DNA from: a virus
Lineage: Duplodnaviria > Caudoviricetes
Direction: 5' to 3' (one strand)
Length of the DNA stretch: 26,961 bases
IMG/VR virus record: IMGVR_UViG_3300038379_000623
Span: 1-26,961 of that record
Below are positions 2,435 through 16,027 of the stretch, in pieces. The notes under the pieces are model-generated. The model was not told the origin of the DNA. It made no database searches and saw nothing but the letters and a program-made list of their open reading frames with translations. A program made the position numbers and the translations under genes. The stretch's first letter is position 1; every line of letters starts with the position of its first letter.

Positions 2435-2650
2435 ATGACCAAGAAAGATTACATTCTGATCGCCGCCGCCCTCCACCGCGGCAAACCGGCCACCCAGGAA
2501 GGTGTCCCCTGCAACACCTACACCAGCATCGCATGCAACACCTACACCAACATCGCAACCCACATCGCCACCGCCCTGGCCACCGACAACCCCCGCTTCA
2601 ATCGCTCCCGCTTCCTCGAAGCCTGCGGTCTGCAATCCACCACCCTGTAA
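2435..2650 (+). CDS. Small phage protein (MTxKDY...DNPRFxxxRFLxACG type)
   Basis: RBS AAAGGAG; recognisable N-terminal MTKKDYILIA and C-terminal DNPRFNRSRFLEACG motifs. Confidence 0.8.
   Translation: MTKKDYILIAAALHRGKPATQEGVPCNTYTSIACNTYTNIATHIATALATDNPRFNRSRFLEACGLQSTTL
2510..2557 (+). repeat. 24-bp in-frame tandem duplication
   Basis: TGCAACACCTACACCAGCATCGCA / TGCAACACCTACACCAACATCGCA (23/24), encoding CNTYTSIA / CNTYTNIA. Confidence 0.9.
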
Positions 2651-2693
2651 CCACCGAACAACCAACCCCAACACAGCCCCGAAGGAGGCTCCC

Positions 2694-3455
2694 ATGTCAA
2701 CGACACCCCTCACCCTGTCCGCCGCAGCCCTCACGCAGCCCTACAAGGGCTCCTGCTGGGATTTAGCTCTCGAAGTCTTGCCACACACCCAACGCACCCT
2801 CCTCTACGGCGCCCCCGGCACCGGCAAGACTTACGCCGCCCAACACATCCACCACGACGCCGCCACCCCCATCTACTCCGTCACCCTCGACGAAGACACC
2901 CCGGCCTCCGAACTACGCGGCCACTTCATCCCCGCCAAAGGCGGCTTCAAGTGGCACGACGGCCCCGCCATCCGCGCATGGCGTGAGGGCGCCCGCCTCA
3001 TCCTGAACGAGATCAACCGCGCCTCCGATTCCGTGCGCACCCTCCTTTACGCCATCCTCGACGACACCGAGAGCGCCCAATACACCTTACCTACGGGCGA
3101 GACCCTCCGTCCTGCCCCGGGCTTCGCTGTCGTCGCCACCATGAATGGCACCCCCGACGAACTCCCCAATGGCCTGCTCGACCGCTTCACCTTCTGCCAC
3201 GAAATCACCACAGTCCACCCGGACGCCCTGCTGCGCCTCCCCGTGGAATTCCGCGCCCTCGCGCAGGAAAGCACCTCCCCATCGAAAGGCTCCAAGCGCC
3301 TCAGCATCCGCGCTTGGCTGTACTTCTGCACCCTGTTGGCCTCCGGTCTGACCCCCGACAGCGCAGGCACGGCAGCCTTCGGCTCTAACTGGAAGGAACT
3401 CGCAGCAGCCCTCGCCATACAAATCGCCCCCCAGGTAAGCGAGCCAACAGCCTGA
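2694..3455 (+). CDS. MoxR/CbbQ/CobS-like AAA+ ATPase
   Basis: RBS AAGGAGG and ATG 2694; Walker A GAPGTGKT; WHDGPAIRAW; Walker B variant LILNEINRA; sensor ATMN; Arg finger LLDRF. Confidence 0.9.
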   Translation: MSTTPLTLSAAALTQPYKGSCWDLALEVLPHTQRTLLYGAPGTGKTYAAQHIHHDAATPIYSVTLDEDTPASELRGHFIPAKGGFKWHDGPAIRAWREGARLILNEINRASDSVRTLLYAILDDTESAQYTLPTGETLRPAPGFAVVATMNGTPDELPNGLLDRFTFCHEITTVHPDALLRLPVEFRALAQESTSPSKGSKRLSIRAWLYFCTLLASGLTPDSAGTAAFGSNWKELAAALAIQIAPQVSEPTA

Positions 3456-3490
3456 ATCGCCCAATCGGCCACCCACCAAGGAGCACTCCC

Positions 3491-4138
3491 ATGCCGAAGC
3501 ACTCTCCCATCCTGAAAACCCTGCGTGCCCGCTACAGCCTTCAGCTCGTGCGCTTCCTCTCTGTCGGCCTCCCCATACTCCTCCTTCTCGACTCGCCGAT
3601 GGGCGCCCTCGCCCTCTCCACCACCCTCATCCTTACCACCTACCTCATACCCGATCCCCGGGACTCCCACATCCCTCCCTTCACCACCATCCTCAGGGCC
3701 ATCTACGAGATCGCCTGGAGCTTCCATAACTCCACGTCCGCCTTCCACAAGGCTGCGCAGATCTCCAACGACAGTGAGCGCGCCAACGCCAGCCAAATCG
3801 CCACCTCGGCGTTCTCCGAGAGCACAGGAGCCCTCCTGCTCCTCTACCGCGAATTCGAGCGTACCCATCCCGAAGTCGCGGAAATCTCCCTGAAGCACGC
3901 CTCCGAGCGCGTCTCCAGAGAGAGCGGTACTACCGCCGAAGTCCTGCGACCCGGACTCCTCCTCCTGCAACCCATGCACGCCGCCCTGCGCGATGTACTC
4001 GCAGAAGCCCTCCTGGAGGACTCCTACAGCATCCGCAAGGCCCTGCGCGACAGCGCACTCCCCTCCTACACCTACCAAGGGGTACCGCTCGGGAAACTCC
4101 TGACAGAAACCCTCCCGGATCGCGGCCCCCTTCTATAA
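3491..4138 (+). CDS. Hypothetical protein with N-terminal hydrophobic segments
   Basis: RBS AAGGAG; fills the gap between the ATPase and vWA genes; hydrophobic stretches FLSVGLPILLLL and MGALALSTTLILTTYLI. Confidence 0.7.
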   Translation: MPKHSPILKTLRARYSLQLVRFLSVGLPILLLLDSPMGALALSTTLILTTYLIPDPRDSHIPPFTTILRAIYEIAWSFHNSTSAFHKAAQISNDSERANASQIATSAFSESTGALLLLYREFERTHPEVAEISLKHASERVSRESGTTAEVLRPGLLLLQPMHAALRDVLAEALLEDSYSIRKALRDSALPSYTYQGVPLGKLLTETLPDRGPLL

Positions 4139-4155
4139 GCAACGTGGAGACCCCC

Positions 4156-6021
4156 ATGACCACTATCTATCCAGCATCCGCCGAAACCGTCCGCAGCCAC
4201 CCCAGCAAGCTGCCAAAGAGCACCTCCAGTCGCCGTGCCCGTGCACACCTCCCCAAGCTCTCTCACTGGACGGTCCACCCCACGACTGCCCTGGCCAGCG
4301 CACACGTCGATCTGAATGCCCGCACTATCTACATCCCCATGCGAGGTGGGGCCTGCGCGCGTCACACCGCTTTCCATGAAATCGGCCACATCCTGTACTC
4401 CCCCATGAAACCCTGCCCCGATTTCCACACCCCCACGCAGCTCCGCCTCTACCGCTACATCGAAGACGTGCGCGTCAATACCCTGCTGACCCGCCACATC
4501 CACCTTCCCATCTCAACCTTCGACCCATCCTCCCCGGAAGACGCCCAGGAGCGGCTCCGCCTCAGCGCACGTGCTCCCACCTCCGGCGTCGCGCGCATCC
4601 TCATGGCCCTGCTCACCGTGGACACCCCCTACCACGGCACCGTTTCACTCCCTGCCCATGAGCAACAACTCGTCGACAACACCATCGCATCGCTGTGGCG
4701 CAACGGCCCTCCGTCGCACGCAGACGCCATCCGTGTCACCCACGAACTACTGGCATCTTCCCCCTCATGGCAGCCATCCCCCATTCCCCAGCAACCAGCC
4801 CCATCCGAAGGCCAGGGCCTGCCCATGTTCTCCGACATCGCCACTCCCTCGAAGGCACTGGCAAAGGAAGCGGGGGTACCGGCAATGGGAGAAGCCCCGG
4901 AAGCGTCTGCCACCGGAGGGCAATCCACGCCGCAGGAACTACAACAGCCTACGCCCGGCCCGGAACCCCTGCTGCAAGAAGCCCTCGACCGGGTGCTCGC
5001 CGCTGGAATCTCCACAGGCAGCGAGAACAGCCTTAATCAGTCCTTCTTCGGGAGCAAGGTCCGGTATGACCAGAAAAAAGCCATCTCCGCCGAGGAAGCA
5101 CGCTGGCTCCCCATGAACATCCTCCAGCCACGCCTGAGCCAACCGGCAAGCGGCTCCAGGAGACTACGATCCTCTCCCCGCTGGGTAGGAGGTTATGAAG
5201 AAGGCACCATCCTCCGCAGCCTGCATCGCTACGCCTCCGATGGCGCCATCTTCGCGCGCCGCCGCAAAAGCGCCCCTGCCCTGACCGTACTGGTGGACTG
5301 GAGCGGTTCAATGCACCTATCCCCTGGGAATATGGCCCGCCTCGCAGCCCTGACCAGATTCAGCCGCGTCACCCTCGCCTACTATTCATCAGGCCGCACC
5401 GTATATTCATCAGGCCACACCATATCGTCGGGATCTCAACAAGAGGGTGCCCTCGTCGTCGTCGCCGACCACGGCAGAATGCTCCCCACCGGACAATGGG
5501 CGATCTACAGAGCGGGAGGGAACAACGGCTGCGACGGCCCTGCCCTCCAATGGTTGAATCGGCACACCGGCCTCAAGGTATGGGTCAGCGACGGCGGCAT
5601 CACAGGACGTGCGGGTACCTCCCAGAGAGCTCTCCTGCGCGAGTGCTACAAGCACTGTCAGCAAGGACAGATCGTACAGGTCCCTACAGTAGAGTTACTC
5701 CTGCGCCTGCTGACCTCCGACGACGGTCCCGATCTGGTCGAAGCCCTGCTCACCCACCGCGCTTCCATCGCCGAACTCCACTGGGCAACCCCCGTCTACT
5801 ACAACGGCACCCCGCTCCTGCCACTGACCAGTCCCGCCACATGGCAGCCGGAAAGCAACGAGAGACTCAAGGCAATGCGAGAGGCCCGCATCGACTCCGA
5901 CGGCTGCATCGTGGTCTTCGCCGCAGGCTTCTACACTCTCCTCTCAGGTGCAGCAGCGGGAGTCGTCCTTCCCGCTCCCTGGGAACGGACTTTCCTGAAA
6001 GTCCTGTCGAGATGCTCATGA
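4156..6021 (+). CDS. HExxH metallopeptidase-like + vWA (MIDAS) protein, CobT-like partner of the AAA+ ATPase
   Basis: AFHEIGHILYS...YIEDVRVN; low-complexity P/Q/S linker; VLVDWSGSM (DxSxS); GGNNGCDGPAL; WVSDG. GGAG precedes ATG 4156. Confidence 0.85.
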   Translation: MTTIYPASAETVRSHPSKLPKSTSSRRARAHLPKLSHWTVHPTTALASAHVDLNARTIYIPMRGGACARHTAFHEIGHILYSPMKPCPDFHTPTQLRLYRYIEDVRVNTLLTRHIHLPISTFDPSSPEDAQERLRLSARAPTSGVARILMALLTVDTPYHGTVSLPAHEQQLVDNTIASLWRNGPPSHADAIRVTHELLASSPSWQPSPIPQQPAPSEGQGLPMFSDIATPSKALAKEAGVPAMGEAPEASATGGQSTPQELQQPTPGPEPLLQEALDRVLAAGISTGSENSLNQSFFGSKVRYDQKKAISAEEARWLPMNILQPRLSQPASGSRRLRSSPRWVGGYEEGTILRSLHRYASDGAIFARRRKSAPALTVLVDWSGSMHLSPGNMARLAALTRFSRVTLAYYSSGRTVYSSGHTISSGSQQEGALVVVADHGRMLPTGQWAIYRAGGNNGCDGPALQWLNRHTGLKVWVSDGGITGRAGTSQRALLRECYKHCQQGQIVQVPTVELLLRLLTSDDGPDLVEALLTHRASIAELHWATPVYYNGTPLLPLTSPATWQPESNERLKAMREARIDSDGCIVVFAAGFYTLLSGAAAGVVLPAPWERTFLKVLSRCS

Positions 6022-6674: not shown

Positions 6675-6682
6675 GGCGTGTT

Positions 6683-6705
6683 ACCGAACGAACGCCGTGT
6701 TATAC
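6683..6705 (-). repeat. Truncated attC-like site 1
   Basis: ACCGAAC-GAACGCCGT-GTTATAC. GTTATACGGCAC (6699-6710) is complementary to GTGACGTATAAC (6900-6911), 11/12. Confidence 0.55.
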
Positions 6706-6720
6706 GGCACTGGAGGCAAA

Positions 6721-6903
6721 ATGGTCATGAAGAAGATGTTTGTTGCAGCACCGAACTACCTAATTGCTTTTGCAATGTGCATGGCGCTGACGGTGATGGC
6801 GGCGCTGACCAAAAACCCGGAATGGTACTGGCTGTTGGTGAGCGACATGAACGTGGCGATATGGCTGTTGGTTGCATACTGGCTCGACCCGCTCAGGAAG
6901 TGA
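6721..6903 (+). CDS. Cassette ORF: small membrane protein
   Basis: RBS GGAGG; two hydrophobic segments; bounded by sites 1 and 2. Confidence 0.7.
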   Translation: MVMKKMFVAAPNYLIAFAMCMALTVMAALTKNPEWYWLLVSDMNVAIWLLVAYWLDPLRK

Positions 6904-6904
6904 C

Positions 6905-6951
6905 GTATAACGCTGCGGCGTAGCCGGTCGGCCTCGAACTGCTTGCTATGG
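6905..6951 (-). repeat. attC-like site 2 (internally deleted relative of site 9)
   Basis: GTATAAC GCTGCGGCGTAGCCGGTCGGCCTCGAACTGCTT GCTATGG; matches site 9 minus 12 nt. Confidence 0.75.
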
Positions 6952-6965
6952 CACAGGAGGAAAGA

Positions 6966-7199
6966 ATGAAGATTTTTCGGGTAGTGACAGAACGGGATGG
7001 AGCAACCACCAAAGTGCCGGGAGAGCATACGACTGAGATTGTGCGTGAAGAACTGCGCTATGCAGCCGATACCATGCAAGAAGTCTGGGACGAGATCGCA
7101 TGGATACGCAACGACCCGGAAAAGACTTTGCTGGCTGTGCATGAGGAGGCGCCGGCAGTTACGGTTCTGGGGCATAGCGCAAAGTCGGGCCAAGCATAA
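6966..7199 (+). CDS. Cassette ORF: hypothetical protein
   Basis: RBS AGGAGG; MKIFRVVTERDG...; the TAA stop lies in the GCATAAC core of site 3. Confidence 0.75.
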   Translation: MKIFRVVTERDGATTKVPGEHTTEIVREELRYAADTMQEVWDEIAWIRNDPEKTLLAVHEEAPAVTVLGHSAKSGQA

Positions 7200-7255
7200 C
7201 GCCGTGTCGAGCGGCGCGCCGAATAGGCGCATCCGGGTTGAAGCGGTTGTTAGAT
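7194..7255 (-). repeat. attC-like site 3 (62 bp)
   Basis: GCATAAC...GTTAGAT imperfect hairpin. GTTAGATTGC is complementary to GCAATCCAAC (7640-7649), 9/10. Confidence 0.8.
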
Positions 7256-7271
7256 TGCAATTGGAGGGACG

Positions 7272-7751
7272 ATGGTAAAGAGAACCGAAAGAGGGTGGCC
7301 CGGGCATTTTACTTGCGCCGACTGGTGCTTGTTCAGAAGGAACACGCTCCTGGACTTTGGCAGGAGGAAAATAATCGTGAGCACGGTTGGGAGGATGCGC
7401 GATGCCAGGAACGGAGGCGCTTACGCCCCCGTTTGCGCAAGCGGAAGGTACTACGAAACGATGGCATTTTATGCCAAGAGAAACGGACCGTATTGGGATG
7501 CCGATGTTACCAGGCAGATCGGCTTTGAAAGCGAATGGGAAATTTGCGCAGATTCGGTAAAAAAATTACCGAAGGATGCCGACAACAAAGCGAACGATAT
7601 GCACGAGGCGGTTGTGGCAGAGCTTATTGAACGATTCGGGCAATCCAACGCCGTGTTGAGCGGCGCGCCTGACGACAACAACGAGGTGCCGGGAAGCGGC
7701 ACACCGCCTCACCGCGTCCGGCCGAAAACAAAACAGAGGTACACGACATGA
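7272..7751 (+). CDS. Cassette ORF: phage hypothetical protein (RGWPGHF...CLFRRNTLL), C-terminus read through site 4
   Basis: RBS GGAGG; the tail SNAVLSGAP... is encoded by the attC-like sequence. Confidence 0.8.
   Translation: MVKRTERGWPGHFTCADWCLFRRNTLLDFGRRKIIVSTVGRMRDARNGGAYAPVCASGRYYETMAFYAKRNGPYWDADVTRQIGFESEWEICADSVKKLPKDADNKANDMHEAVVAELIERFGQSNAVLSGAPDDNNEVPGSGTPPHRVRPKTKQRYTT
7643..7744 (-). repeat. attC-like site 4 (long, degenerate)
   Basis: ATCCAAC GCCGTGTTGAGCGGCGCGCC is nearly identical to the left arm of site 3; the right end is CGCGTCCGGCCGAAAAC...GGTACAC. Confidence 0.65.
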
Positions 7752-7793
7752 CCCTGACATTCTATTCCGTGAGTCTCAGGGCATGGAGGAAAC

Positions 7794-7997
7794 ATGGCTC
7801 AATGTAAAACATGCAGATTTTTCGAATTTATCGATTCCAATCCGGAGTCGTACGGAATATGTAGATGGTTCGATCATCACACACTTCCAGGGCCAATATG
7901 GTTTCATCGGGAACTGCGGGATACGGTATCCATTGGCAGCGGTGCTCTACACCCGGAACAGGAGTTATGCCTCGCGCACCGGGACAAAGCCGTATAA
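7794..7997 (+). CDS. Cassette ORF: small Cys-containing protein (CxxC...C...C)
   Basis: RBS GGAGG; MAQCKTCRFF...GICRW...LC; the stop falls in the core-like GCCGTATAAT. Confidence 0.7.
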   Translation: MAQCKTCRFFEFIDSNPESYGICRWFDHHTLPGPIWFHRELRDTVSIGSGALHPEQELCLAHRDKAV

Positions 7998-8019
7998 TGC
8001 AAAGTCGGTAAGGTGGAAT

Positions 8020-8265
8020 ATGGAAAAAATACTGGCAAACATCGAAATGGCTGTCTCTAACGGCGTCAAACGGGCAAATAGGCGCGAGTTTGAGATTGGC
8101 GACCTTGTGGAACGAAGCGGACAACCTGATTGTATTTTTGAAGTAGTTGGGTGCATTCACGATACAGAAAGACTATTTGTTATCGACCGTACTGGACGAT
8201 TCGCCAAGGGGAAGGAATTTGAAATGTGTTTTGCCGAAGTATCCAGGCAATTTCGTGCCGTATAA
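8020..8265 (+). CDS. Cassette ORF: hypothetical protein (FEIGDLV, possibly SH3/KOW-like)
   Basis: AAGGTGG before ATG 8020; 3' half of track ORF 7783..8265; the stop is in the GTATAAC core of site 5. Confidence 0.65.
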   Translation: MEKILANIEMAVSNGVKRANRREFEIGDLVERSGQPDCIFEVVGCIHDTERLFVIDRTGRFAKGKEFEMCFAEVSRQFRAV

Positions 8266-8338
8266 CGAAACGATGGAGGTAACGCGCGCCATGACCAAGC
8301 ATGCAAACGATGCAACGCCATTAAGCGATTTGTCAGAT
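8260..8338 (-). repeat. attC-like site 5 (degenerate; contains RBS and start of the next ORF)
   Basis: GTATAAC...GGAGGT...ATG(8291)...GTCAGAT. GTCAGATTG (8332-8340) is exactly complementary to CAATCTGAC (8471-8479). Confidence 0.6.
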
Positions 8339-8503
8339 TGTCCTGTGTGCGATGGATACGGCGGCATTCGGTTTCAGCGGTGTTGCGGTCGTGATCGCAA
8401 CGGCGAATGCTGCGGAGACCCGAAAATCGATGTCGAACAATGCCACGCTTGCGGCGGCAGCGGACAAGTGCAATCTGACGATGGAGCTAAGCAGCATGAG
8501 TGA
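8291..8503 (+). CDS. Cassette ORF: DnaJ-type zinc-finger mini-protein
   Basis: CPVCDGYG and CHACGGSG (CxxCxGxG twice) plus two CCG; RBS GGAGGT. Confidence 0.8.
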   Translation: MTKHANDATPLSDLSDCPVCDGYGGIRFQRCCGRDRNGECCGDPKIDVEQCHACGGSGQVQSDDGAKQHE

Positions 8504-8544
8504 AGCGCAGCGTAACGAATGTCCTCTTGAGCGGGTTGTTAGCC
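8473..8544 (-). repeat. attC-like site 6 (contains start of the MTase-like ORF)
   Basis: ATCTGAC...GCTAAG...CTTGAGC...GTTAGCC. GTTAGCCCCGTTT is complementary to AAATGGGGCTAAC (9096-9108), 12/13. Confidence 0.75.
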
Positions 8545-9107
8545 CCGTTTTGGTGGGCTGCGAGGAAAGCCAGGTTGTTTGCAAGGCGTTTCGGGATGCC
8601 GGACATGAAGCCTACTCTTGCGACTTGCAGCCGACACGCGGAAATCCCGATTGGCACTTTCAGCAGGACATTATGGAAGTGATACCGATCCGGCGATGGG
8701 GGCTGATAATTCTGCACCCGGATTGCACGGCGCTGGCAGTAAGCGGGAATCGCTGGTATGGACGCGGGATGCCGAGACACAGCGAGAGAGAGAGAGCAAT
8801 CAAGTGGACTCTGGATTTGTGGGAGCTGGCAAAAATGCACAGTGACAGGGTGGCACTGGAAAACCCGGTGAGTGTGATATTTACGCACTTACCGAATGTG
8901 TTTTACACACAGCCGTATGACCACGGGCACGGAGAAACGAAAAAGACCGGCTTTGCACTGCATAATCTGGAGCCGCTGGAACCGACGAACAAGGTTGAAG
9001 GCCGGGAACAGCGGATATGGAAAATGCCACCTTCGGCCACGCGGAAACGCGACAGGAGCGAGACGTTTCCCGGGATTGCTGCCGCGATGGTGAGGAAATG
9101 GGGCTAA
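8496..9107 (+). CDS. Cassette ORF: short phage C5-cytosine DNA methyltransferase-like protein
   Basis: VLVGCEESQVV...AYSCDL (SAM-binding region), HPDCT (motif IV-like), LENP (motif VI), RSETFPGIAAAMV.KWG; GGAG before ATG 8496. Confidence 0.75.
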   Translation: MSEAQRNECPLERVVSPVLVGCEESQVVCKAFRDAGHEAYSCDLQPTRGNPDWHFQQDIMEVIPIRRWGLIILHPDCTALAVSGNRWYGRGMPRHSERERAIKWTLDLWELAKMHSDRVALENPVSVIFTHLPNVFYTQPYDHGHGETKKTGFALHNLEPLEPTNKVEGREQRIWKMPPSATRKRDRSETFPGIAAAMVRKWG

Positions 9108-9182
9108 CGCTCCGCATGAGCGGCAGACGAAGGAGGAATGAAATGACGACTGAGACTGTCCGACTTGATGCGCTTGTTATGC
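9102..9182 (-). repeat. attC-like site 7 (RBS and ATG in its loop)
   Basis: GGCTAAC GCTCCGCATGAGCGGCAG-[ACGAAGGAGGAATGAAATGACGACTGAGA]-CTGTCCGACTTGATGCGCTT GTTATGC. Unit ends GTTATGCGCC / GACGCATAAC pair 9/10. Confidence 0.85.
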
Positions 9183-9460
9183 GCCTTCGTGCGGCTGCGG
9201 CTAACAAGGCGCTGGATATTGGCACGGCGTGGAAGTTATTGGATGAATCAGCCGATGTAATTGAAAAGATTTTTAACGGCCTAGATTGCGAAACTGAGTG
9301 CCCTTGCTGCCAAGAAAACACAGAGTGCCTCGAAGGCTGTACGTTCTCAACTGATTCATACGATGGGTATGGGCGGATGCAATTCTTTCGCGAACTGCTG
9401 ACGCATAACGGCGTTTTCAGTGGCACGCCGTCAGGCGGGTCCGCCGGAAAACAGGGTTAG
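9143..9460 (+). CDS. Cassette ORF: Cys-rich hypothetical protein
   Basis: RBS AGGAGG; CETECPCC...CLEGC; starts in site 7 and stops at the TAG within GTTAG of site 8. Confidence 0.75.
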   Translation: MTTETVRLDALVMRLRAAAANKALDIGTAWKLLDESADVIEKIFNGLDCETECPCCQENTECLEGCTFSTDSYDGYGRMQFFRELLTHNGVFSGTPSGGSAGKQG

Positions 9461-9462
9461 GT
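9403..9462 (-). repeat. attC-like site 8 (60 bp)
   Basis: GCATAAC GGC GTTTTCAGTGG...CCGCCGGAAAAC AGG GTTAGGT. Unit ends GTTAGGTTGC / GCAACCTAAC pair 10/10. Confidence 0.85.
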
Positions 9463-9478
9463 TGCGATTGGAGGGCAC

Positions 9479-9709
9479 ATGAATTTTGTACAGGTAACAG
9501 ACCGGCTACCACAAGCCAAGGAAACTGTATTGGTTCGCGGATGGGGCGAAGGCAAGAAACACTACATTTATGGATTCGCCTGCATTGAACCATTGCGTAG
9601 CGGTGGCTGGCGTTGGTGGTCGCATGACCATGGTGAGGAGCTGTGGTTCGAGCCGATTGCATGGACTGAGCTTGAGCAACCTAACGCTGCGGTTGAGCCG
9701 CCGGCGTAG
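9479..9709 (+). CDS. Cassette ORF: DUF551-like protein
   Basis: FVQVTDRLP...VLV...W...PIAWTEL pattern; RBS GGAGG. Confidence 0.7.
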   Translation: MNFVQVTDRLPQAKETVLVRGWGEGKKHYIYGFACIEPLRSGGWRWWSHDHGEELWFEPIAWTELEQPNAAVEPPA

Positions 9710-9737
9710 CCGGTCCGCCTCGAACCGCTTGTTATGC
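9679..9737 (-). repeat. attC-like site 9 (59 bp, best conserved)
   Basis: Minus strand: GCATAAC AAGCG GTTCGAGG CGGACCGGCTACGCCGGCGG CTCAACC GCAGC GTTAGGT, i.e. R''-spacer-L''(extra C)...L'-spacer-R'. Unit ends GTTATGCCTCAA / TTGAGGCATAAC pair 12/12. Confidence 0.9.
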
Positions 9738-9756
9738 CTCAATGTTGGAGGACAAA

Positions 9757-10029
9757 ATGAAAGCAACAGAATACTGCGATGTATTGAACCTGGAAATGCG
9801 GTTGACGTACTACCCAAACCAGGGTGGCCGGTGGACCGCATTTTTTGAAAATTGCGAACTGAAGGAAACACCGGATTCCGGTGTTCTTTGCGGTGCGTAT
9901 GGAAATGGGGCCTCTCCGGCATTGGCGATTGCCGATTACGTGAACAGGATTCGCGGCAAGACGTTGGTTGTCGATGCGATGAGCCCACAGCGCCGTGTTT
10001 ACATGGTGCCTGAATCGCTTGAGGCATAA
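9757..10029 (+). CDS. Cassette ORF: hypothetical protein (YGNGASPALAIADY)
   Basis: RBS GGAGG; the TAA stop lies in the GCATAAC core of site 10. Confidence 0.8.
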   Translation: MKATEYCDVLNLEMRLTYYPNQGGRWTAFFENCELKETPDSGVLCGAYGNGASPALAIADYVNRIRGKTLVVDAMSPQRRVYMVPESLEA

Positions 10030-10076
10030 CGTTGGAGTTAACGCGACCTTCGGTCGCGTTCGACGACGAGTTGGAT
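10024..10076 (-). repeat. attC-like site 10 (53 bp)
   Basis: GCATAAC...AACGCGAC-CTTCG-GTCGCGTT...GTTGGAT. Unit ends GTTGGATTT / AAATCTAAC pair 8/9. Confidence 0.8.
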
Positions 10077-10091
10077 TTGGAGAATTGCGAT

Positions 10092-10325
10092 ATGCACAAA
10101 ACAGATAGTCACACCCCCGATGGCAAGCGCGGCGAGGTATTCGCTGCTTCCATGCTACGCGACATTCTTCTCGCTGGCGATAATTTGCGCGGATATGGGC
10201 AAGAGGCACCTTGGGAAACGGTTGCGCATTACGTCATAAACCTTGAGCGACGAGTGTGCGAATTGGAAGATATGCTGAAATCTAACGGCCCGCTAACCGG
10301 CGAGCCGGAAGGCGAGTCCGGTTGA
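10092..10325 (+). CDS. Cassette ORF: hypothetical protein
   Basis: GGAG before ATG 10092; the tail SNGPLTGEPEGESG is encoded by site 11. Confidence 0.7.
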   Translation: MHKTDSHTPDGKRGEVFAASMLRDILLAGDNLRGYGQEAPWETVAHYVINLERRVCELEDMLKSNGPLTGEPEGESG

Positions 10326-10339
10326 GCGGAGAGTTATAC
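10280..10339 (-). repeat. attC-like site 11 (60 bp)
   Basis: ATCTAAC GGC CCGCTAACCGG...CCGGTTGAGCGG AGA GTTATAC; the stem has a single extrahelical G in the right arm on +. Confidence 0.9.
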
Positions 10340-10349
10340 GGAGGTATGT

Positions 10350-10613
10350 ATGGCAAGCAGCTTTGCTCCTTGGTGGAAAAGGCTTTTGTTTAAGACGCCA
10401 CTCTACAAGCGCGGACCATGCCAAAACTACCATTTGAGAACCGACAAGTTTTGTTTCTGCCGTGTTAACGAGCACTGCGGAGATTGGAATGGCGGTATCT
10501 ACAGTTTCGAGACAGGGCAAGAATTGTTCCTCGATACTTCACGACCGCGGGCCACGAAAGACCGGAAGTGCGCCGACCTGTCCCGGTCGGCTCGATTAAA
10601 TTGTGGGGCGTAA
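10350..10613 (+). CDS. Cassette ORF: hypothetical protein
   Basis: RBS GGAGGT directly after site 11. Confidence 0.65.
   Translation: MASSFAPWWKRLLFKTPLYKRGPCQNYHLRTDKFCFCRVNEHCGDWNGGIYSFETGQELFLDTSRPRATKDRKCADLSRSARLNCGA
10583..10609 (-). repeat. Degenerate right half of attC-like site 12
   Basis: CCGGTCGGCTCGATTAAATT GTGGGGC resembles CCGGTCGGCCTCGAACTGCTT GCTATGG of site 2. Confidence 0.4.
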
Positions 10614-10624
10614 ACGGAGGCACT

Positions 10625-10762
10625 ATGACTGAAGGCGATATTTTCCAGATTCTTTGGCTTTTGGGTGGACTTGCACTTCCGTTCTTCCCGATTGCCGCAC
10701 TGGTTTATTTATTACTGCTTGTTGCGGCATTGTTTGTACCAGCGTCATGGTTTGGTTTATGA
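10625..10762 (+). CDS. Small membrane protein (45 aa)
   Basis: RBS GGAGG; MTEGDIFQILWLLGGLALPFFPIAALVYLLLLVAALF..., almost entirely hydrophobic. Confidence 0.7.
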   Translation: MTEGDIFQILWLLGGLALPFFPIAALVYLLLLVAALFVPASWFGL

Positions 10763-10835
10763 CGCCTGACAAGGAATAGACCGCCCAACTGCGGTAATAC
10801 AACGCCGCAATCGCCCACAATACAGGAGAACCGGA

Positions 10836-10994
10836 ATGAAACATCCCGTCTCGCTGTTCCGATCCGCACTGGTGCTGGCGCTGCTCGCTGTACTGCTCGA
10901 CGGCGCCGGCTGCCGCGCTCACGTACAGCCGCGCAGTGCTGGCGTAGTCTACGCCACGGGCGGCGTCTGCGATCCGTGCGGTGCCGTGCAATGA
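10836..10994 (+). CDS. Small secreted/membrane peptide (52 aa)
   Basis: Below the track cutoff. RBS AGGAG; MKHPVSLFRSALVLALLAVLLDGAGC...; ATGA overlap with the next gene. Confidence 0.55.
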   Translation: MKHPVSLFRSALVLALLAVLLDGAGCRAHVQPRSAGVVYATGGVCDPCGAVQ

Positions 10995-11221
10995 AAGCGC
11001 ATCATGCGTTGGGCATCGGCCTTATTTGCATCGGCATCGTGGTCGCGGTCGGTGTGTATACCCTGCCGCCGTATCTCAGGGCGCATGCAGACGCCGAGGC
11101 ACGATTCGCGCTGCTACGGGAGCAGGATGCCGTAATGCAGGCGATGGCCGAAACCATCGCCGAGTGCAATGCCGCGCTCAGGAAGGCCGGCGTAACCTTC
11201 AACCACCGACAGGAGGACTGA
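10991..11221 (+). CDS. Hypothetical protein with N-terminal TM and helical tail
   Basis: MKAHHALGIGLICIGIVVAVGVY...; coupled start. Confidence 0.7.
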   Translation: MKAHHALGIGLICIGIVVAVGVYTLPPYLRAHADAEARFALLREQDAVMQAMAETIAECNAALRKAGVTFNHRQED

Positions 11222-11223
11222 CC

Positions 11224-11460
11224 ATGTATGACAGTAGAGAGAAAGAGCAGAGCAGTGAGACGATGCGAATCCCTGCGGACGAACTTGCCAAGGTACGGGG
11301 GGAGGCGATCAACGAGTTTCTGCTTCTTCTGAGCCTTGGCTATCGCCCGATAGCAGCGTTCGAGCGCGTCACGGGGAGGCCGGGCACGGAAGCGATGCGC
11401 GCCCTCGAGCACGTGGCCATTGGCAAGTCGTTGAATTGCGAGGACAGTTTCAAATCTTGA
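11224..11460 (+). CDS. Hypothetical protein
   Basis: RBS AGGAGG; MYDSREKEQ... Confidence 0.7.
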   Translation: MYDSREKEQSSETMRIPADELAKVRGEAINEFLLLLSLGYRPIAAFERVTGRPGTEAMRALEHVAIGKSLNCEDSFKS

Positions 11461-11485
11461 CACACGCGCGAATAGCTGAGAACAT
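11457..11485 (+). promoter_or_regulatory. Possible sigma70-type promoter for the recombination/replication operon
   Basis: TTGACA, a 17-nt spacer containing CACGCGCG, then a weak -10 GAACAT, at an intergenic gap. Confidence 0.35.
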
Positions 11486-11548
11486 TGCATGCGCAGCGGC
11501 ACTCGCCTCCTGCGCGATTTGAATTCAACCCGGAAAGGAGATCGATCC

Positions 11549-11815
11549 ATGGCAAAGAGAAACGGCACCCGCACTACCGTCGGCCCTGTGCAGTCGGGCA
11601 TTCCACTACCGTCGAGAATGGCAGGAGTGCGTGGCACTTCCAAGTACCCCCTGCGCATGCTGCGCGTCGGGCAATCCTTTGAGGTGTCCGGAAAGACTGC
11701 ACCCGCCAGACTTCGGGGGACGATCTCGAATCTCTTGCAGGTGCACCCGGAGTTCAAGGGCCGGTTTGCCACCCGCAAGACCGAACAGGGCGTGCGGGTA
11801 TGGCGCGTCAAGTGA
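11549..11815 (+). CDS. Small basic putative DNA-binding phage protein (GIPLP...KYP...VGxSF...GVRVWR type)
   Basis: RBS AAAGGAG; characteristic motif series. Confidence 0.8.
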   Translation: MAKRNGTRTTVGPVQSGIPLPSRMAGVRGTSKYPLRMLRVGQSFEVSGKTAPARLRGTISNLLQVHPEFKGRFATRKTEQGVRVWRVK

Positions 11816-11823
11816 GCCCTGCC

Positions 11824-12009
11824 ATGAGTGAAGACACATTGATGCAGGCTGTCCTGAACCTGAACGATCTGCGGCGCTCCGTGCTGGAGGGGAAGGAAGT
11901 TTCAGCTACAGAGTACGCCCGTCTGATAGAGGAGCTGCGCGCCGCCCGGGAGGCAGCCCCGAAAAGAAAACGTCCCGGCAAGGCAAAGAACGATGCCGAC
12001 CCCGCGTAA
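11824..12009 (+). CDS. Hypothetical protein
   Basis: Fills the operon gap; helical with a basic tail. Confidence 0.65.
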   Translation: MSEDTLMQAVLNLNDLRRSVLEGKEVSATEYARLIEELRAAREAAPKRKRPGKAKNDADPA

Positions 12010-12295
12010 CCTGAATCAGTACCCGATCAGCTACCTGACTGCGCTATTGAGAGCTGCGGTGAAACCCGTGACCTTCGCGTGTGACAGCCCGGGCAGTGCA
12101 AAGACGCTGCGGGGGGAACTCTACCTGATGCGTGCCAAGCTGGTACGTGAAGCGGGGAAGCGCAAGCGCGGGCGCCTCGTAACGACAGCAGGCACGATCC
12201 GGCGCGTAAGGATGCGCGTTGTCAACAGCTCCCTCATTCTGGAGCCGCGCCTCACCAAGGGCGAACTCGTCACACGGGCGATGGAGGAGCGATGA
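11993..12295 (+). CDS. Hypothetical basic protein
   Basis: Overlaps both neighbours in operon fashion; MPTPRNLNQYP... Confidence 0.7.
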   Translation: MPTPRNLNQYPISYLTALLRAAVKPVTFACDSPGSAKTLRGELYLMRAKLVREAGKRKRGRLVTTAGTIRRVRMRVVNSSLILEPRLTKGELVTRAMEER

Positions 12296-12516
12296 CATAT
12301 CCACTGGAGGCATTCAGGTTTGCCCTGCTGCACGCCCGCACCGTGGCAGACGTGCTGCGGGCATACAAGGAGTTCGCGTCATTCTACGGCGTTCATGCGG
12401 AACTGCCGGAGGAGCAGTGGGCGCGCATATCCGCCGCGCTCGCCTTGGGCGATTCCATTCAACTTCCCTTGAAGGAGGGTATCCATGACAGCAATTCCAT
12501 TCCCGCAGGGGATTGA
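12292..12516 (+). CDS. Hypothetical protein
   Basis: RBS GGAGGAG; ATGA overlap. Confidence 0.7.
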   Translation: MTYPLEAFRFALLHARTVADVLRAYKEFASFYGVHAELPEEQWARISAALALGDSIQLPLKEGIHDSNSIPAGD

Positions 12517-13423
12517 CTCGACGATGCGGGGGGCATTCGTCTCCTGTCCCCGGAAATTCTACTGGGAGTTCATGCGGCACAAGCGCCCCATGACCCCCTC
12601 CGTACACCTGCATGCAGGGGCCGCGTTCGCACGGGGGCTGGAGGTGGCGCGCATCGAATTCTACGGCAACGGCAAGAGCGCACAGGAGGCAGTCGGTCTT
12701 GGCGCCATCGCACTGACGCGCTCCTACGGGGAGTTCTCGCCGACCAACCCCTACAGCGGTAAAACCTGGGACGGTATGCTGGGAGCGTATGCCGCCTACT
12801 TCCTCAAGTGGCCTCTCGACAGCGACCCCCTGATTCCCCTGCGCAAAATCGACGGCACTCCCTACGTTGAATTCTCCTTCGCCGTACCTGTCCCGGGCAC
12901 GCGCCATCCCGATACGGGCGACCCGATCCTGTATACAGGGCGTGCCGACATGATCGGAGAGGTGCAGGGGCTCAAGTTCATCGTGGACGAGAAAACCACC
13001 AGCCTCCTCGGCGCTTCCTGGAGCAGGCAGTGGGACTTGCGTGGGCAGTTCATTGGATACGTATGGGCTGCGCAGCAGTCCGGCATCGACGTGTGCGGCT
13101 CCCGCATTCGCGGTATCTCCATCCTGAAAAGCGGCTACGGAACGGCGGATGCCGTCATGTACGCGCAGCAGTGGAAGATAGACTCGTGGCTGCGCTCGCT
13201 GCGCTACGACGTGGATCGGATGGTGCGGCTGTGGGTCGGCTCCGAGAGCAGGAATAGCGCAGCCTCCCACGCCTGGCCCCAGGCCTACGATCACGCCTGC
13301 ACGGCGTATGGAGGGTGCCCGTTCGTGGAGCTGTGCAGCGTGGAGCACCCCGAAGAATGGGCTGAAACGAATTTTCGTGAAGAAGTCTGGAACCCCCTGA
13401 CGAAGGAGACTGGCAATGACTGA
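12485..13423 (+). CDS. Cas4/AddB-like PD-(D/E)XK exonuclease
   Basis: DST...CPRKFYW; GRADMI; VDEKTT; QFIGY; C-terminal CTAYGGCPFVELC (1+3 Cys Fe-S pattern); RBS AAGGAGG. Confidence 0.88.
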   Translation: MTAIPFPQGIDSTMRGAFVSCPRKFYWEFMRHKRPMTPSVHLHAGAAFARGLEVARIEFYGNGKSAQEAVGLGAIALTRSYGEFSPTNPYSGKTWDGMLGAYAAYFLKWPLDSDPLIPLRKIDGTPYVEFSFAVPVPGTRHPDTGDPILYTGRADMIGEVQGLKFIVDEKTTSLLGASWSRQWDLRGQFIGYVWAAQQSGIDVCGSRIRGISILKSGYGTADAVMYAQQWKIDSWLRSLRYDVDRMVRLWVGSESRNSAASHAWPQAYDHACTAYGGCPFVELCSVEHPEEWAETNFREEVWNPLTKETGND

Positions 13424-14339
13424 GAAAGCTGTAATACCCGCATCTGTACCTGCAACGGCGCGCACGGCTGTGCCTGAAGGAGCTGCCTTCACGGTTACTG
13501 CTGCTACTGCTGCTGTGCCGACGAGACTGCCCGGACCCAAGGTGCTGCTTATGGGCGAGAGTGGCACCGGAAAAACCCACGCCCTGCGCACCCTGCTGGA
13601 TGCCGGAGTGACACCCTTCATCCTTTTCACGGAGCCGGGGATGGAAGTTTTGGGCGATCTGCTGCCTCCCGAAGGACAGCCCTGTCGGTTCCACTGGACG
13701 TACATTCCTCCCTCGTCGGCCCCCTGGGAGGCACTGGAGGCTTCGGCAAGGCAAATCAACAACCTGACTATGGAGCAGTTGTCGCGCTTGTCCGATATCA
13801 GCAAGCGGGAGTACAAGGAATTCCTGGGCGTCGTGGCGGCCTCGCGCAACTTCATCTGTGATCGCTGCGGGCAGAATTTCGGCGATGTCTGCACGTGGGG
13901 AAAGAATCGGGCGTTCGTGATCGACTCCGGCTCGGGTCTGGCGATCATGGCGATGAACCTTGCGGTGGGAAGCAAGCCGGTGAAGTCGCAGGCTGACTGG
14001 GGAATCGCCGTCGATAATCTGGAGCGGTTCTACGTCAAGCTGCTGACGGATGCGCGCTGCATCGTCGTTCTGATATCGCACATGGAGCGTGAACAGAACG
14101 AGATCACGGGAGCCCTGAGTATTACCGCGGCGACGCTGGGGCGCAAACTGGGACCGAAGCTGCCCCGTTTCTTCTCCGACGTGATCGAGGCCCGGCGTGA
14201 CGGGACGAAGTTCTCCTGGAGTACCGCGACACCCAACATGACGCTGAAGGCCCGCAACGTCCCTCTCGCCGACGGGCTTCCGGCTTCGTTCAAGCCGCTG
14301 ATCGAAGCGTGGCGGACCCGCATGGGCATCGAGGGCTGA
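13416..14339 (+). CDS. Sak4-like (AAA_24) P-loop ATPase, putative recombination protein
   Basis: KVLLMGESGTGKT; FVIDSGS; LISH; CxxC insert (CDRC); located between the exonuclease and the SSB-like gene. Confidence 0.82.
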   Translation: MTEKAVIPASVPATARTAVPEGAAFTVTAATAAVPTRLPGPKVLLMGESGTGKTHALRTLLDAGVTPFILFTEPGMEVLGDLLPPEGQPCRFHWTYIPPSSAPWEALEASARQINNLTMEQLSRLSDISKREYKEFLGVVAASRNFICDRCGQNFGDVCTWGKNRAFVIDSGSGLAIMAMNLAVGSKPVKSQADWGIAVDNLERFYVKLLTDARCIVVLISHMEREQNEITGALSITAATLGRKLGPKLPRFFSDVIEARRDGTKFSWSTATPNMTLKARNVPLADGLPASFKPLIEAWRTRMGIEG

Positions 14340-14403
14340 AAGAGTTGTACCCCAGCCGGCGGGCAGGCCGGCATGTTCAAACCTGAAACCGGAGAGTAAG
14401 ACG

Positions 14404-14865
14404 ATGAGTGACTTTGATACTGAGGAATTCCTGTCCACTTCCGTGGCGACGGCGTTCGATACGCGCCGCAAACCGCTGCCGGAGGGGGAGTACACAGGAG
14501 TCATTGACAGCGTGGAAGTGCGCAAGGTGATCTACCGCAAGGGAGAAAATGCCGGCAGCGAGGGCAAGGGCCTGGACGTGTTCGTGACAATCGACAACGT
14601 GCAGGACAAGATCGGGCAACCCTCGGTGAAGCTGCGCTACAGCTTCCTGCTGGACCTGACCCCCTCGGGCGGACTGGACACCTCCAAGCACCGCAACCTG
14701 CGCCTGGGACGCCTGCGGGAGGCAGTGGAGCAGAACACTGACAAGCCGTGGAATCTCGGGATGCTCGTGGGGCAGCCCTTGCAGGTGCGGGTGAAGCACC
14801 GCCCCGACACCAACGATCCCGAGGTGATCTACGACGAGATCGCGTCTGTGGCGAAGATGGCGTAA
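14404..14865 (+). CDS. Putative ssDNA-binding protein (DUF669-like)
   Basis: PLPEGEYTGVI...LGRLREAV...LVGQPLQVRVKHR...YDEI; typical position after a Sak4-like gene. Confidence 0.75.
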   Translation: MSDFDTEEFLSTSVATAFDTRRKPLPEGEYTGVIDSVEVRKVIYRKGENAGSEGKGLDVFVTIDNVQDKIGQPSVKLRYSFLLDLTPSGGLDTSKHRNLRLGRLREAVEQNTDKPWNLGMLVGQPLQVRVKHRPDTNDPEVIYDEIASVAKMA

Positions 14866-14900
14866 GTCAGGAGCCGGGCGACTCACTCCTTCTGGGCCGC

Positions 14901-14945
14901 GCCCTCCCGGCCCATGCCGTTCCCGGCAGGAGGGCACCTTTCCCT
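14901..14945 (+). terminator. Imperfect hairpin after the SSB-like gene
   Basis: GCCCTCC-CGG...CCG-GCA-GGAGGGC followed by ACCTTTCCCTT. Confidence 0.35.
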
Positions 14946-14969
14946 TCACTACCAAGGAGATAGTTAACT

Positions 14970-15392
14970 ATGCCCCGGATCGAAAAAACCCGATTTCGCA
15001 CTGCGCCTCCCCTTGAGTTCTCTGTGGCTCCTCTCCCGGTGCGCGTGCGCATCTGGCGGCGCCTGCGCAGCCTGAATCTGGATGTGATGTTGTACTACGG
15101 GCTTGCCTGTGTCGTCCTGCTTTTGGGGATATTGCTGCTGGCGGGCTGTGCCAGCACACCCTTTGCGGAAATCGGAATTGGAGGAGTCCGACAACCGCTG
15201 ACGCACGCGACGGCTTCTCCGGTGGTGATGCAGGTTGAGCTGGGAACGCAATGGCGCTCGGGATTCGGCTTCAAGTACAACCATACCAGTTCCGTCGATG
15301 GGCCTCCCGTGAACAGTCGCAGGGACGACCGCTGGACCGAGTACGGCGGGATGTACTGGCGCATGTCATTCGACAAGGCTCATCCCAAATGA
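14970..15392 (+). CDS. Putative lipoprotein / outer-membrane beta protein
   Basis: RBS AAGGAG; hydrophobic segment ending in lipobox LAGC; alternating beta-strand-like segments, YNHTSS and terminal YWRMSF. An alternative start is at 15087. Confidence 0.65.
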   Translation: MPRIEKTRFRTAPPLEFSVAPLPVRVRIWRRLRSLNLDVMLYYGLACVVLLLGILLLAGCASTPFAEIGIGGVRQPLTHATASPVVMQVELGTQWRSGFGFKYNHTSSVDGPPVNSRRDDRWTEYGGMYWRMSFDKAHPK

Positions 15393-15441
15393 TACGCCTT
15401 ATCGCGGACCGAGTACGGCGGGATGTACTGGCGCATGTCAT
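15334..15441 (+). repeat. Exact 36-bp direct repeat separated by 36 bp
   Basis: GGACCGAGTACGGCGGGATGTACTGGCGCATGTCAT at 15334-15369 and 15406-15441. Confidence 0.95.
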
Positions 15442-15456
15442 GGTAGGAGGAAGCGT

Positions 15457-15645
15457 ATGCTTGCCAAGCCTGTGAATCCGAAGATCGTCTGGCCTGCGCG
15501 CGTCTGGATATGCGACCGCAACGGCAAGTGGTACTCGCGGCCGGCGACCCTGCACGACTGGAAACGGCGGGGGCGCGTGGAGAGGAGTCTGCTCTCGGGT
15601 GCGCCTCCGGGGAAAGAGACGCATGGAGGGGATTTTCCCTGCTGA
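15457..15645 (+). CDS. Hypothetical protein
   Basis: RBS AGGAGG; 62 aa. Confidence 0.6.
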   Translation: MLAKPVNPKIVWPARVWICDRNGKWYSRPATLHDWKRRGRVERSLLSGAPPGKETHGGDFPC

Positions 15646-15787
15646 ACTACAGGGCACGGCCTGACTACTGCCCGGGCCTGGGGCCTCTCCCGTGTGAAAA
15701 GGCTCCGCTGTTGCTACACAGGCCCGTCTGCGTCGAAGTCGTGCTGTTACAGATTTGTTTTTTCTTTTCAGATTGGAGTCAGACGCC

Positions 15788-16027
15788 ATGGCAGACGTGA
15801 TCGATCTGAAGGTTGTCTCTGAAGATAACCATCACTGGGGAATAGAGGAAATGTTGCAGGATGCCCTGCGGGACTTCTCCGGCATAAGGCAGGGCCGGGC
15901 GCTCCTGATCGTTGAGGGTCCGGAGAAACACCATTATCAGGTGAAGCGGGTGCGCCTGGATTTGGCGCAGACACTCCTGTTGCTGCGCGTTGTCGAGCGT
16001 GGATTTCTCCGGGAGAGTGGACTGTGA
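15788..16027 (+). CDS. Hypothetical protein
   Basis: GGAG before ATG 15788; MADVIDLKVV...; GTGA overlap with the polymerase. Confidence 0.75.
   Translation: MADVIDLKVVSEDNHHWGIEEMLQDALRDFSGIRQGRALLIVEGPEKHHYQVKRVRLDLAQTLLLLRVVERGFLRESGL

Follow-up and report, generated by a model that had tools for sequence, protein, structure and literature searches.

Probable integron-type gene cassettes with attC hairpins on the coding strand, in front of their genes, in a freshwater phage

Integron gene cassettes carry self-pairing ends, and their recombination site attC is defined in the circular form of the cassette (PMC2674596, PMC2727003); the recombinogenic attC strand displays an unpaired base at position 16, usually G (Nivina 2016, PMC5027507). 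Clusters of attC sites lacking integron integrases (CALINs) have been described in phages, and five of the six phage sites tested were recombined by IntI1, with a preference for the bottom strand (PMC9892861). The analysis was applied to IMG/VR virus record IMGVR_UViG_3300038379_000623, a whole linear record of 26,961 bases with an estimated completeness of 60% (hereafter the window), which originated from a freshwater phage and harbored about a dozen small genes organized as integron-type cassettes. We consider it probable (about 0.8) that these are cassettes with the attC hairpin on the coding strand, and that each hairpin, together with the gene following it, was moved as a circle by an integron integrase.

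An earlier note on this DNA had divided the array into nine units with unit-specific complementary ends of 9–13 bp and had taken these ends as strong evidence of mobility. All nine start strings and all nine end strings were found exactly once in the window, in the order given there, from 6699 to 10286. At positions 4–10, beyond the core triplet, the ends of the same unit paired at 54 of 63 positions. The 362,880 possible re-pairings (every permutation of the nine ends) averaged 30.7, and only four of them reached the observed value; at positions 8–12 alone, the corresponding figures were 30 of 45 and 16.3, with 27 permutations reaching the observed value. An alternative end of unit 2 (7200) still gave 52/63 (reached by eight permutations), and the result was thus independent of the end chosen for that unit. 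The facing cores across each linear site matched at only 1–3 of 7 positions in 9/9 sites, so that pairing was indeed better within units than within linear sites, and upon circularization in silico (DNA parameters, coding strand) the circular junctions folded better than the linear sites in 8/8 units tested, by a mean of −4.9 kcal/mol; in six of the eight, the unit's own end ranked first among eight ends. The complementarity was therefore real, but the length claimed for it was not: the unbroken runs measured 8, 6, 3, 9, 9, 8, 10, 12, and 3 nucleotides (nt), with 8–12 matches per unit within the first 12 end positions. The start at 6699 matched the end at 8266 at 12/12 positions and its own end at 6911 at 11/12, and the block 6699–8266 may once have moved as a single unit. 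The nine units left out two genes in the decayed stretch 7794–8265 and two after 10333.

Matching ends are an ordinary integron property, already published and equal in bacterial integrons: a one-metric pairing score gave 0.857 for the window, 0.817 for 25 bacterial integron units (143/175 positions paired, as strong as in the window), and 0.881 for 12 units of another phage array. The claim that the units had existed as circles with a paired hairpin was well supported, but indirectly, by this textbook property and by the homologues of one cassette, which occurred in many neighborhoods with breaks at the core (see below). Neither circles nor core-to-core excision joints were found in the contigs of the DNA sequencing run that contained the array; since rare variants are dropped from contigs, this does not count against circles. 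One contig joint, linking 8101 and 10054 at a depth of 2.5 with 21 nt on its shorter side, was set aside because it did not lie on cores.

The interpretation given in the earlier note was supported in part, and the main peculiarity of the array, the reversal of the sites relative to the genes, had gone unremarked in it. Our own scanner, used rather than IntegronFinder or HattCI, looked for position 16, counted from the 3' end, being unpaired between paired flanks. In the window, it detected five such sites, every one of them on the + (coding) strand, with none on the − strand and none in three shuffles. Site s6 passed as a sixth when one noncanonical core (GAC) was allowed, so that s6 to s11, six of the nine sites, displayed the geometry on the + strand only; position 16 was G in 7/9 sites. 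Genes 6, 7, and 8 had their start codons inside their upstream sites, and six genes read through into the next site. The same scanner was applied to three further sets of loci: (i) 80 bacterial IntI loci, giving 25 inter-site segments in nine loci (18 with the open reading frame [ORF] in classical orientation, three flipped, and four unclear); (ii) 25 viral IntI loci, giving five segments in three loci (four flipped, none classical, and one unclear); and (iii) five stretches from phages carrying the methyltransferase cassette discussed below, giving 13 segments (nine flipped). Among published phage arrays, that of TJE1 was classical (three clustered sites) and that of MW202573 flipped (three sites), while the scanner plus two primer-derived motifs located none of the published P12002L sites in bases 1–48,000. 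A fresher flipped array of 13 sites was observed in another record, L095 (G004:C1:15000-34000), at 9867–16425, where all seven core positions matched in 11/12 units; two methyltransferase-like cassettes of this array were almost identical at the N-terminus and had identical ends, and the record contained no integrase.

A cut at G|TT and a cut at AA|C are indistinguishable from matching ends, and the comparison of homologues was therefore used, with the DNA methyltransferase-like gene of cassette 7 as the query. A total of 160 loci were taken (80 of 181 viral and 80 of 535 metagenome matches), 155 of which were usable. The cassette form, with both cores in register, was present in 27 loci at ≥70% amino-acid identity, representing 26 distinct contexts; the neighborhoods differed widely and the breaks fell at the core. 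Among 138 pairs with genes ≥85% alike, 38 shared the upstream site only, none the downstream site only, and three both, the remaining 97 being neither or intermediate. In the two large site families, the shared stretch began at AA|C, and the sequence to its left was unrelated. All scored homologue sites were on the coding strand, comprising 21 upstream sites (for which only that strand was required) and 15/15 downstream sites (for which both were allowed). As judged from these sequence comparisons, it is thus the upstream site that likely travels with the gene among the methyltransferase cassette's relatives. By eye, the upstream loop of one homologue (L239) was much like that of s6. The matched end pairs differed between methyltransferase lineages (GTTAGCC/GGCTAAC and GTTATGC/GCATAAC), and a quick tree of 60 rows showed eight switches of cassette status, of which starred branches forced at least four; repeated capture and repeated loss would both fit this history. 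Site-free homologues existed for the methyltransferase gene and for gene 3, the attC ends of the latter being missing in 4/4 other phage homologues found.

Integrase genes were found in related phages. One of five related virus records searched encoded an integron integrase (TIGR02249, 412.8 bits, cut-off 265); this phage record shared the methyltransferase cassette family, and its intI gene lay downstream of, and co-directional with, the cassette ORFs. With this IntI as the query, 26 viral loci were collected, itself included. The ORFs upstream of viral intI had the same direction as intI in ten loci, mixed directions in three, and the opposite direction in one (14 testable loci, seven being too short); upstream of bacterial intI, the corresponding counts were 9, 3, and 23 (35 testable loci, 44 being too short). 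In a fast tree, the viral IntI proteins fell into several virus-only clades with starred support. Of the 12 neighboring genes scanned, 10 matched phage families, including a terminase small subunit and methyltransferases. An attI-like stretch was common to three phage intI loci, the shared sequence beginning exactly at AA|C and the genes to its left being unrelated. The viral layout therefore keeps intI, attI, and attC in their usual mutual orientation, with every gene turned. Three side observations were made at such loci: a site in an IntI-bearing phage record (L092:574-633, G002) closely resembled, by eye, the aadA7 attC in the supplement of Qi 2023, a likeness suggesting that bacterial and phage pools exchange sites; the gene just before the phage attI and intI of L103 looked, by eye, like the methyltransferase family of cassette 7; and in L115, at about 8830–9830, a stretch the size of a cassette was tandemly duplicated immediately ahead of the phage intI.

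Under the reading preferred here, each cassette would be a hairpin plus the gene after it. An integron integrase would cut at AA|C just behind a gene, and the cassette would be excised and inserted as a circle in which the 3' end of the gene pairs with the arm in front of it; this would account for starts that match the end of their own unit but not the core they face across a linear site. The integrase would most likely be a phage-encoded IntI of the kind located downstream of such arrays in related phages. Because the contig has no integrase, the array is likely an orphan, which would now depend on an integrase from the host or another phage and whose left half is decaying. Circles, strand of cleavage, enzyme, and any present activity are predicted from the observed sequences, pairing, geometry, sharing of sites among homologues, and IntI genes and junctions of other phages.

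Several observations weigh against this reading. Three of the nine sites (s1, s2, and s5) failed the coding-strand geometry, and the crude ORF test called two of the 13 related-phage segments classical (and two unclear) and, of the four window segments, two flipped and two unclear. The 38 upstream-only pairs came from four site families and were not independent, and the window copy was not among them, its polarity resting on geometry, start codons, and analogy. No protein homologue was found for cassette 6. No tyrosine recombinase was present in the window contig (no PF00589 match, estimated completeness as above) or in its near-identical sister record; 79 loci related to the phage backbone had no IntI and no excess of sites (4 versus 6 in shuffles). 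The attI candidate of the window was weak, and a low-depth contig that shared 10760–10886 and differed to the left broke 29 nt left of the predicted junction. A tblastn search of the window with IntI likewise gave no significant match (best E 0.96).

Two units covaried even in the core triplet, GCT/AGC in unit 2 and GTC/GAC in cassette 6, as the earlier note had pointed out. For unit 2, this was a true compensatory pair: its 74% homologue L287 had GTT and AAC at the two places, so that both ends of unit 2 had changed, and complementarily. The possibility that the AGC end was a misreading, the ORF stopping 21 nt further on, was rejected by this canonical homologue and by the C-termini of the family, which comprised 24 proteins (the window's included) and diverged at exactly the proposed end; GHN was found in 4 of the 23 others where the window had GHS. 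For the GTC/GAC unit, the ends paired as claimed (9/9), and no homologue was found. The rest of the arms was still paired in both units (10/12 each), and triplet position 1 was invariant in all nine. A survey of noncanonical triplets counted one site in the window, none beside 98 canonical phage or metagenome sites, and two beside 44 bacterial sites, neither of the latter with a perfect partner, which suggests that such triplets are rare; the scanner misses decayed sites such as s1 and s5. The relaxed specificity at which the earlier note had hinted has already been shown for IntI1, and for this very pair of triplets (PMC2811028, Table 4): relative to wild type and against attI1, a paired GTC gave 1.0 (aadA7) or 0.044 (VCRd) and a paired GCT 0.15 or 0.48, while an unpaired triplet lowered the frequency about 400-fold (6e-6 versus 2.2e-3) (PMC2811028).

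These triplet changes are tolerated, and as insertion requires the triplet to be paired, it would select for pairing. In the linear array, the two ends of a unit never meet; the second change must therefore have come from a separate mutation, from repair while the circle was folded, or from cassette making itself. The two cassettes likely went through circular insertion after gaining both changes, because insertion needs a paired triplet and tolerates changes at positions 2 and 3. Drift in dead sites, with the changed bases pairing by chance, would be the alternative, and both right-hand noncanonical cores did lie in decayed or irregular sites (s1 and s5), with a third change, GTG near 10603, showing by eye no sign of compensation; but in both units the change at one end was matched by a complementary change at the other, the arms still paired, and the homologue of unit 2 was canonical at both places, and we regard drift as unlikely. 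A wider proposal is that phages possess a mirror-image integron system with which they repeatedly convert accessory genes of their own into cassettes, the front arm being copied from or corrected against the 3' end of the gene in a folded single-stranded intermediate. We offer this tentatively, as the less probable outcome; the GCT/AGC unit and the methyltransferase family (at least two matched end pairs and eight switches of form) would then be footprints of templated end formation. Excision is higher when the recombinogenic strand is the lagging-strand template (Loot 2017), and if phage genes run with the fork, the reversed polarity may favor shuffling.

The mover itself might differ. The same cassettes with the same polarity could have been moved by a host integrase or a short Xer-like recombinase, phage intI genes being occasional passengers. 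The integrase-free window contig and the single IntI among five related virus records would fit this, as would the recombination of phage attC sites by IntI1 (PMC9892861) and the aadA7-like site in an IntI-bearing phage record (by eye); the occurrence of viral IntI in several virus-only clades, at a fixed place behind an attI-like junction, argues for phage-encoded enzymes, and a non-phage mover appears rather doubtful. An ordinary bacterial array, with the site after the gene and a cut at G|TT, might instead have been captured whole by the phage: both polarities predict matching ends equally, the G+C content of the array (0.53) was lower than that of the backbone (0.62), and the published array of TJE1 has classical polarity. 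Such a capture is contradicted for the methyltransferase family by the upstream site being shared 38 to 0, and the coding-strand geometry of the sites and the site-free phage homologues of cargo genes make it highly improbable for the array as a whole. The hairpins might also act in mRNA, in translation starts, processing, or termination, with genes being exchanged when similar hairpins undergo homologous recombination. In favor of this, it is the coding strand that is structured, the loops contain start codons, and genes in the vicinity code for an exonuclease and a Sak4-like annealing protein. That reading sits badly with pairing arms that are 200–600 nt apart in different hairpins and mismatched across each linear site, with breaks at AA|C between unrelated sequences, and with the lack of an Rfam match, and we judge it very unlikely, although an RNA role may be a second function of the hairpins. 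Movement of the hairpin and its following gene as a circle by an integron integrase remains the preferred reading.

The features of the array are listed in Table 1. By definition, attC sites have RYYYAAC and GTTRRRY cores 57–141 nt apart overall; s0 was read by eye outside the scanner, and no left arm was found for it. Seven of the nine sites with both cores were 59–81 nt long, with s10 at 53 nt and s1 at 47 nt, and three cores were noncanonical. Decay was concentrated in the left half of the array and was also seen in the site nearest the candidate attI. The same 10-nt stretch followed two decayed cores (7178–7188 and about 7998–8008), which suggests that a single site family is present there as two collapsed copies. 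Scans for promoters and terminators gave no more than expected by chance; the sigma-70 scan gave one site versus 3.8 in shuffles, and phage promoters may differ from this model.

Table 1. Coordinates of the cassette array and its parts in the window
Feature	Coordinates	Strand	Remarks
Site remnant s0	6680..6705	+	Right arm only: G at position 16 from end, 3+5 nt, GTT core at 6699
Unit 1 gene	6721..6903	+	60 amino acids, hydrophobic, no family match
Site s1, decayed	6905..6951	+	47 nt, right core GCT; sister of s9 minus 12 nt of left arm
Cassette 2 (s1 + gene)	6911..7177	+	GCT/AGC cores; ORF 6966-7199 runs past its end
Remnant between AGC end and s2	7178..7199	+	22 nt; probably a collapsed site or cassette
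Site s2	7194..7255	+	Arms partly mismatched
Cassette 3	7200..7648	+	ORF 7272-7751 reads through into s3
Site s3	7643..7740	+	Right core lost; end coordinate approximate
Two genes in decayed stretch	7794..8265	+	7794-7997 and 8020-8265; second gene ends at full core
Site s5, irregular	8260..8338	+	Right core GTC; contains start codon(s) of gene 6
Cassette 6	8266..8478	+	GTC/GAC cores; Cys-rich ORF 8273 or 8291 to 8503; ends pair 9/9
Site s6	8473..8544	+	Full coding-strand geometry, left core GAC; contains methyltransferase ATG (8496)
Cassette 7	8479..9107	+	DNA methyltransferase-like gene; phrog_757, E 2.8e-49; stop codon within end core
Site s7	9102..9182	+	Loop carries ribosome-binding-like motif and ATG (9143) of gene 8
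Cassette 8	9108..9408	+	ORF 9143-9460 reads through into s8
Site s8	9403..9462	+	Scanner geometry
Cassette 9	9409..9684	+	ORF 9479-9709; weak phrog_924 match, E 0.009
Site s9	9679..9737	+	Scanner geometry
Cassette 10	9685..10029	+	ORF 9757-10029; ends pair 12/12
Site s10	10024..10076	+	Extrahelical base C
Cassette 11	10030..10285	+	ORF 10092-10325 reads through into s11
Site s11	10280..10339	+	Top-scoring site
Two further genes	10350..10762	+	10350-10613 and 10625-10762; decayed site between, about 10555-10609, right core GTG (by eye)
Candidate attI-like array end	10783..10800	+	Weak, uncertain; no integrase gene after it

The window encoded family A DNA polymerase, primase, Sak4-like protein, PD-(D/E)XK exonuclease, and a match to an ejection protein, and the G+C content of 0.62 outside the array contrasted with that of the array, a run of small co-directional genes. 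A near-identical sister record carried the same array and extended further left; searches with the exonuclease as a single query, with cassette 10, and with the s1/s9 site pattern gave this sister record as the only relative. No match was obtained by blastn of the array against annotated phage genomes, and Rfam gave none at gathering thresholds and one at chance level. One DNA sequencing run, possibly the source sample, contained the array, and no RNA run was listed. An AAA_5 ATPase gene and a large partner gene (2502–6021) preceded the array and were syntenic in two relatives without it, which contained plain accessory genes at the array position. Because of these relatives and of the 79 backbone-related loci mentioned above, the array is likely a lineage-specific acquisition. 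Elsewhere in the window, a perfect 36-nt direct repeat (15334–15369 and 15406–15441, 72 nt apart) lay at the end of an ORF, and a 34-nt inverted repeat (1491–1524 and 2300–2333, 88% complementary, 775 nt apart) lay at a change of sign in GC skew.

The matching ends that had drawn attention to this array are standard integron biology, and their value is as a marker of a reversed-polarity phage cassette pool tied to phage-encoded integron integrases. If this is confirmed, phages would use single-strand site-specific recombination to shuffle accessory genes, methyltransferases among others, and the hairpin would also serve as a translation start. On entering a bacterial integron, a phage cassette is predicted to land antisense to the promoter, and vice versa, which would keep the two pools partly separate. 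Because some gene families occur both as plain phage genes and as cassettes, comparative analysis can test where cassettes come from; the naturally occurring GCT/AGC and GTC/GAC units could serve directly as substrates, and templated end formation, if true, would offer direct access to the way integron cassettes arise.

The locus was finally compared with described systems. No description of phage arrays with genes inverted relative to attC was found in the mainly open-access literature searched: the part covered of the text of Qi et al. (2023, PMC9892861) contained no statement of such inversion, and the part covered of 'Natural History of Integrons' (Ghaly 2021) had nothing on inverted phage arrays. 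The phage CALINs of Qi et al. resemble the window in having an attC array in a phage, without a nearby intI and with methyltransferase cargo, and one of them, MW202573 (Fig. 2D of PMC9892861), was read as flipped by the scanner used here, and TJE1 as classical; the window array is longer, with nine sites having both cores plus remnants. With at least two attC sites close together and no intI nearby on a contig estimated to be 60% complete, the window array belongs to the CALINs, and it lacks the intI beside the array that a complete integron has. The noncanonical units recall the engineered non-GTT sites of Frumerie 2010 (PMC2811028), in which paired GCT or GTC was tolerated if carried by one partner only and position 1 was invariant; those sites were engineered, while the window's are natural cassettes, one of them with a canonical relative. 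In reverse integrons such as those of Treponema (Cury 2016, PMC4889954), intI and the cassette genes have the same direction, as in the phage loci, but there intI is turned relative to attC, while in the phage loci the genes are turned and intI keeps its usual orientation; the related viral loci retained the usual site orientation upstream of intI and the window had no intI, which sets both apart from reverse integrons. The sites themselves are attC sites by their core motifs and spacing, the position-16 extrahelical base on one strand, and the complementarity of the cores in circular form, and they share with known integron cassettes the RYYYAAC...GTTRRRY cores, this extrahelical base, site lengths of 53–81 nt, and self-pairing over 9–11 nt (PMC2727003, PMC5027507, PMC2674596). 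The cassettes do not conform to the classical type, in which the ORF lies on the attC top strand, the site is 3' of it, and the boundary is at G|TT: unlike in bacterial cassettes, the recombinogenic geometry was on the coding strand and the site stood before its gene, often supplying the start codon of that gene and receiving read-through from the preceding one.

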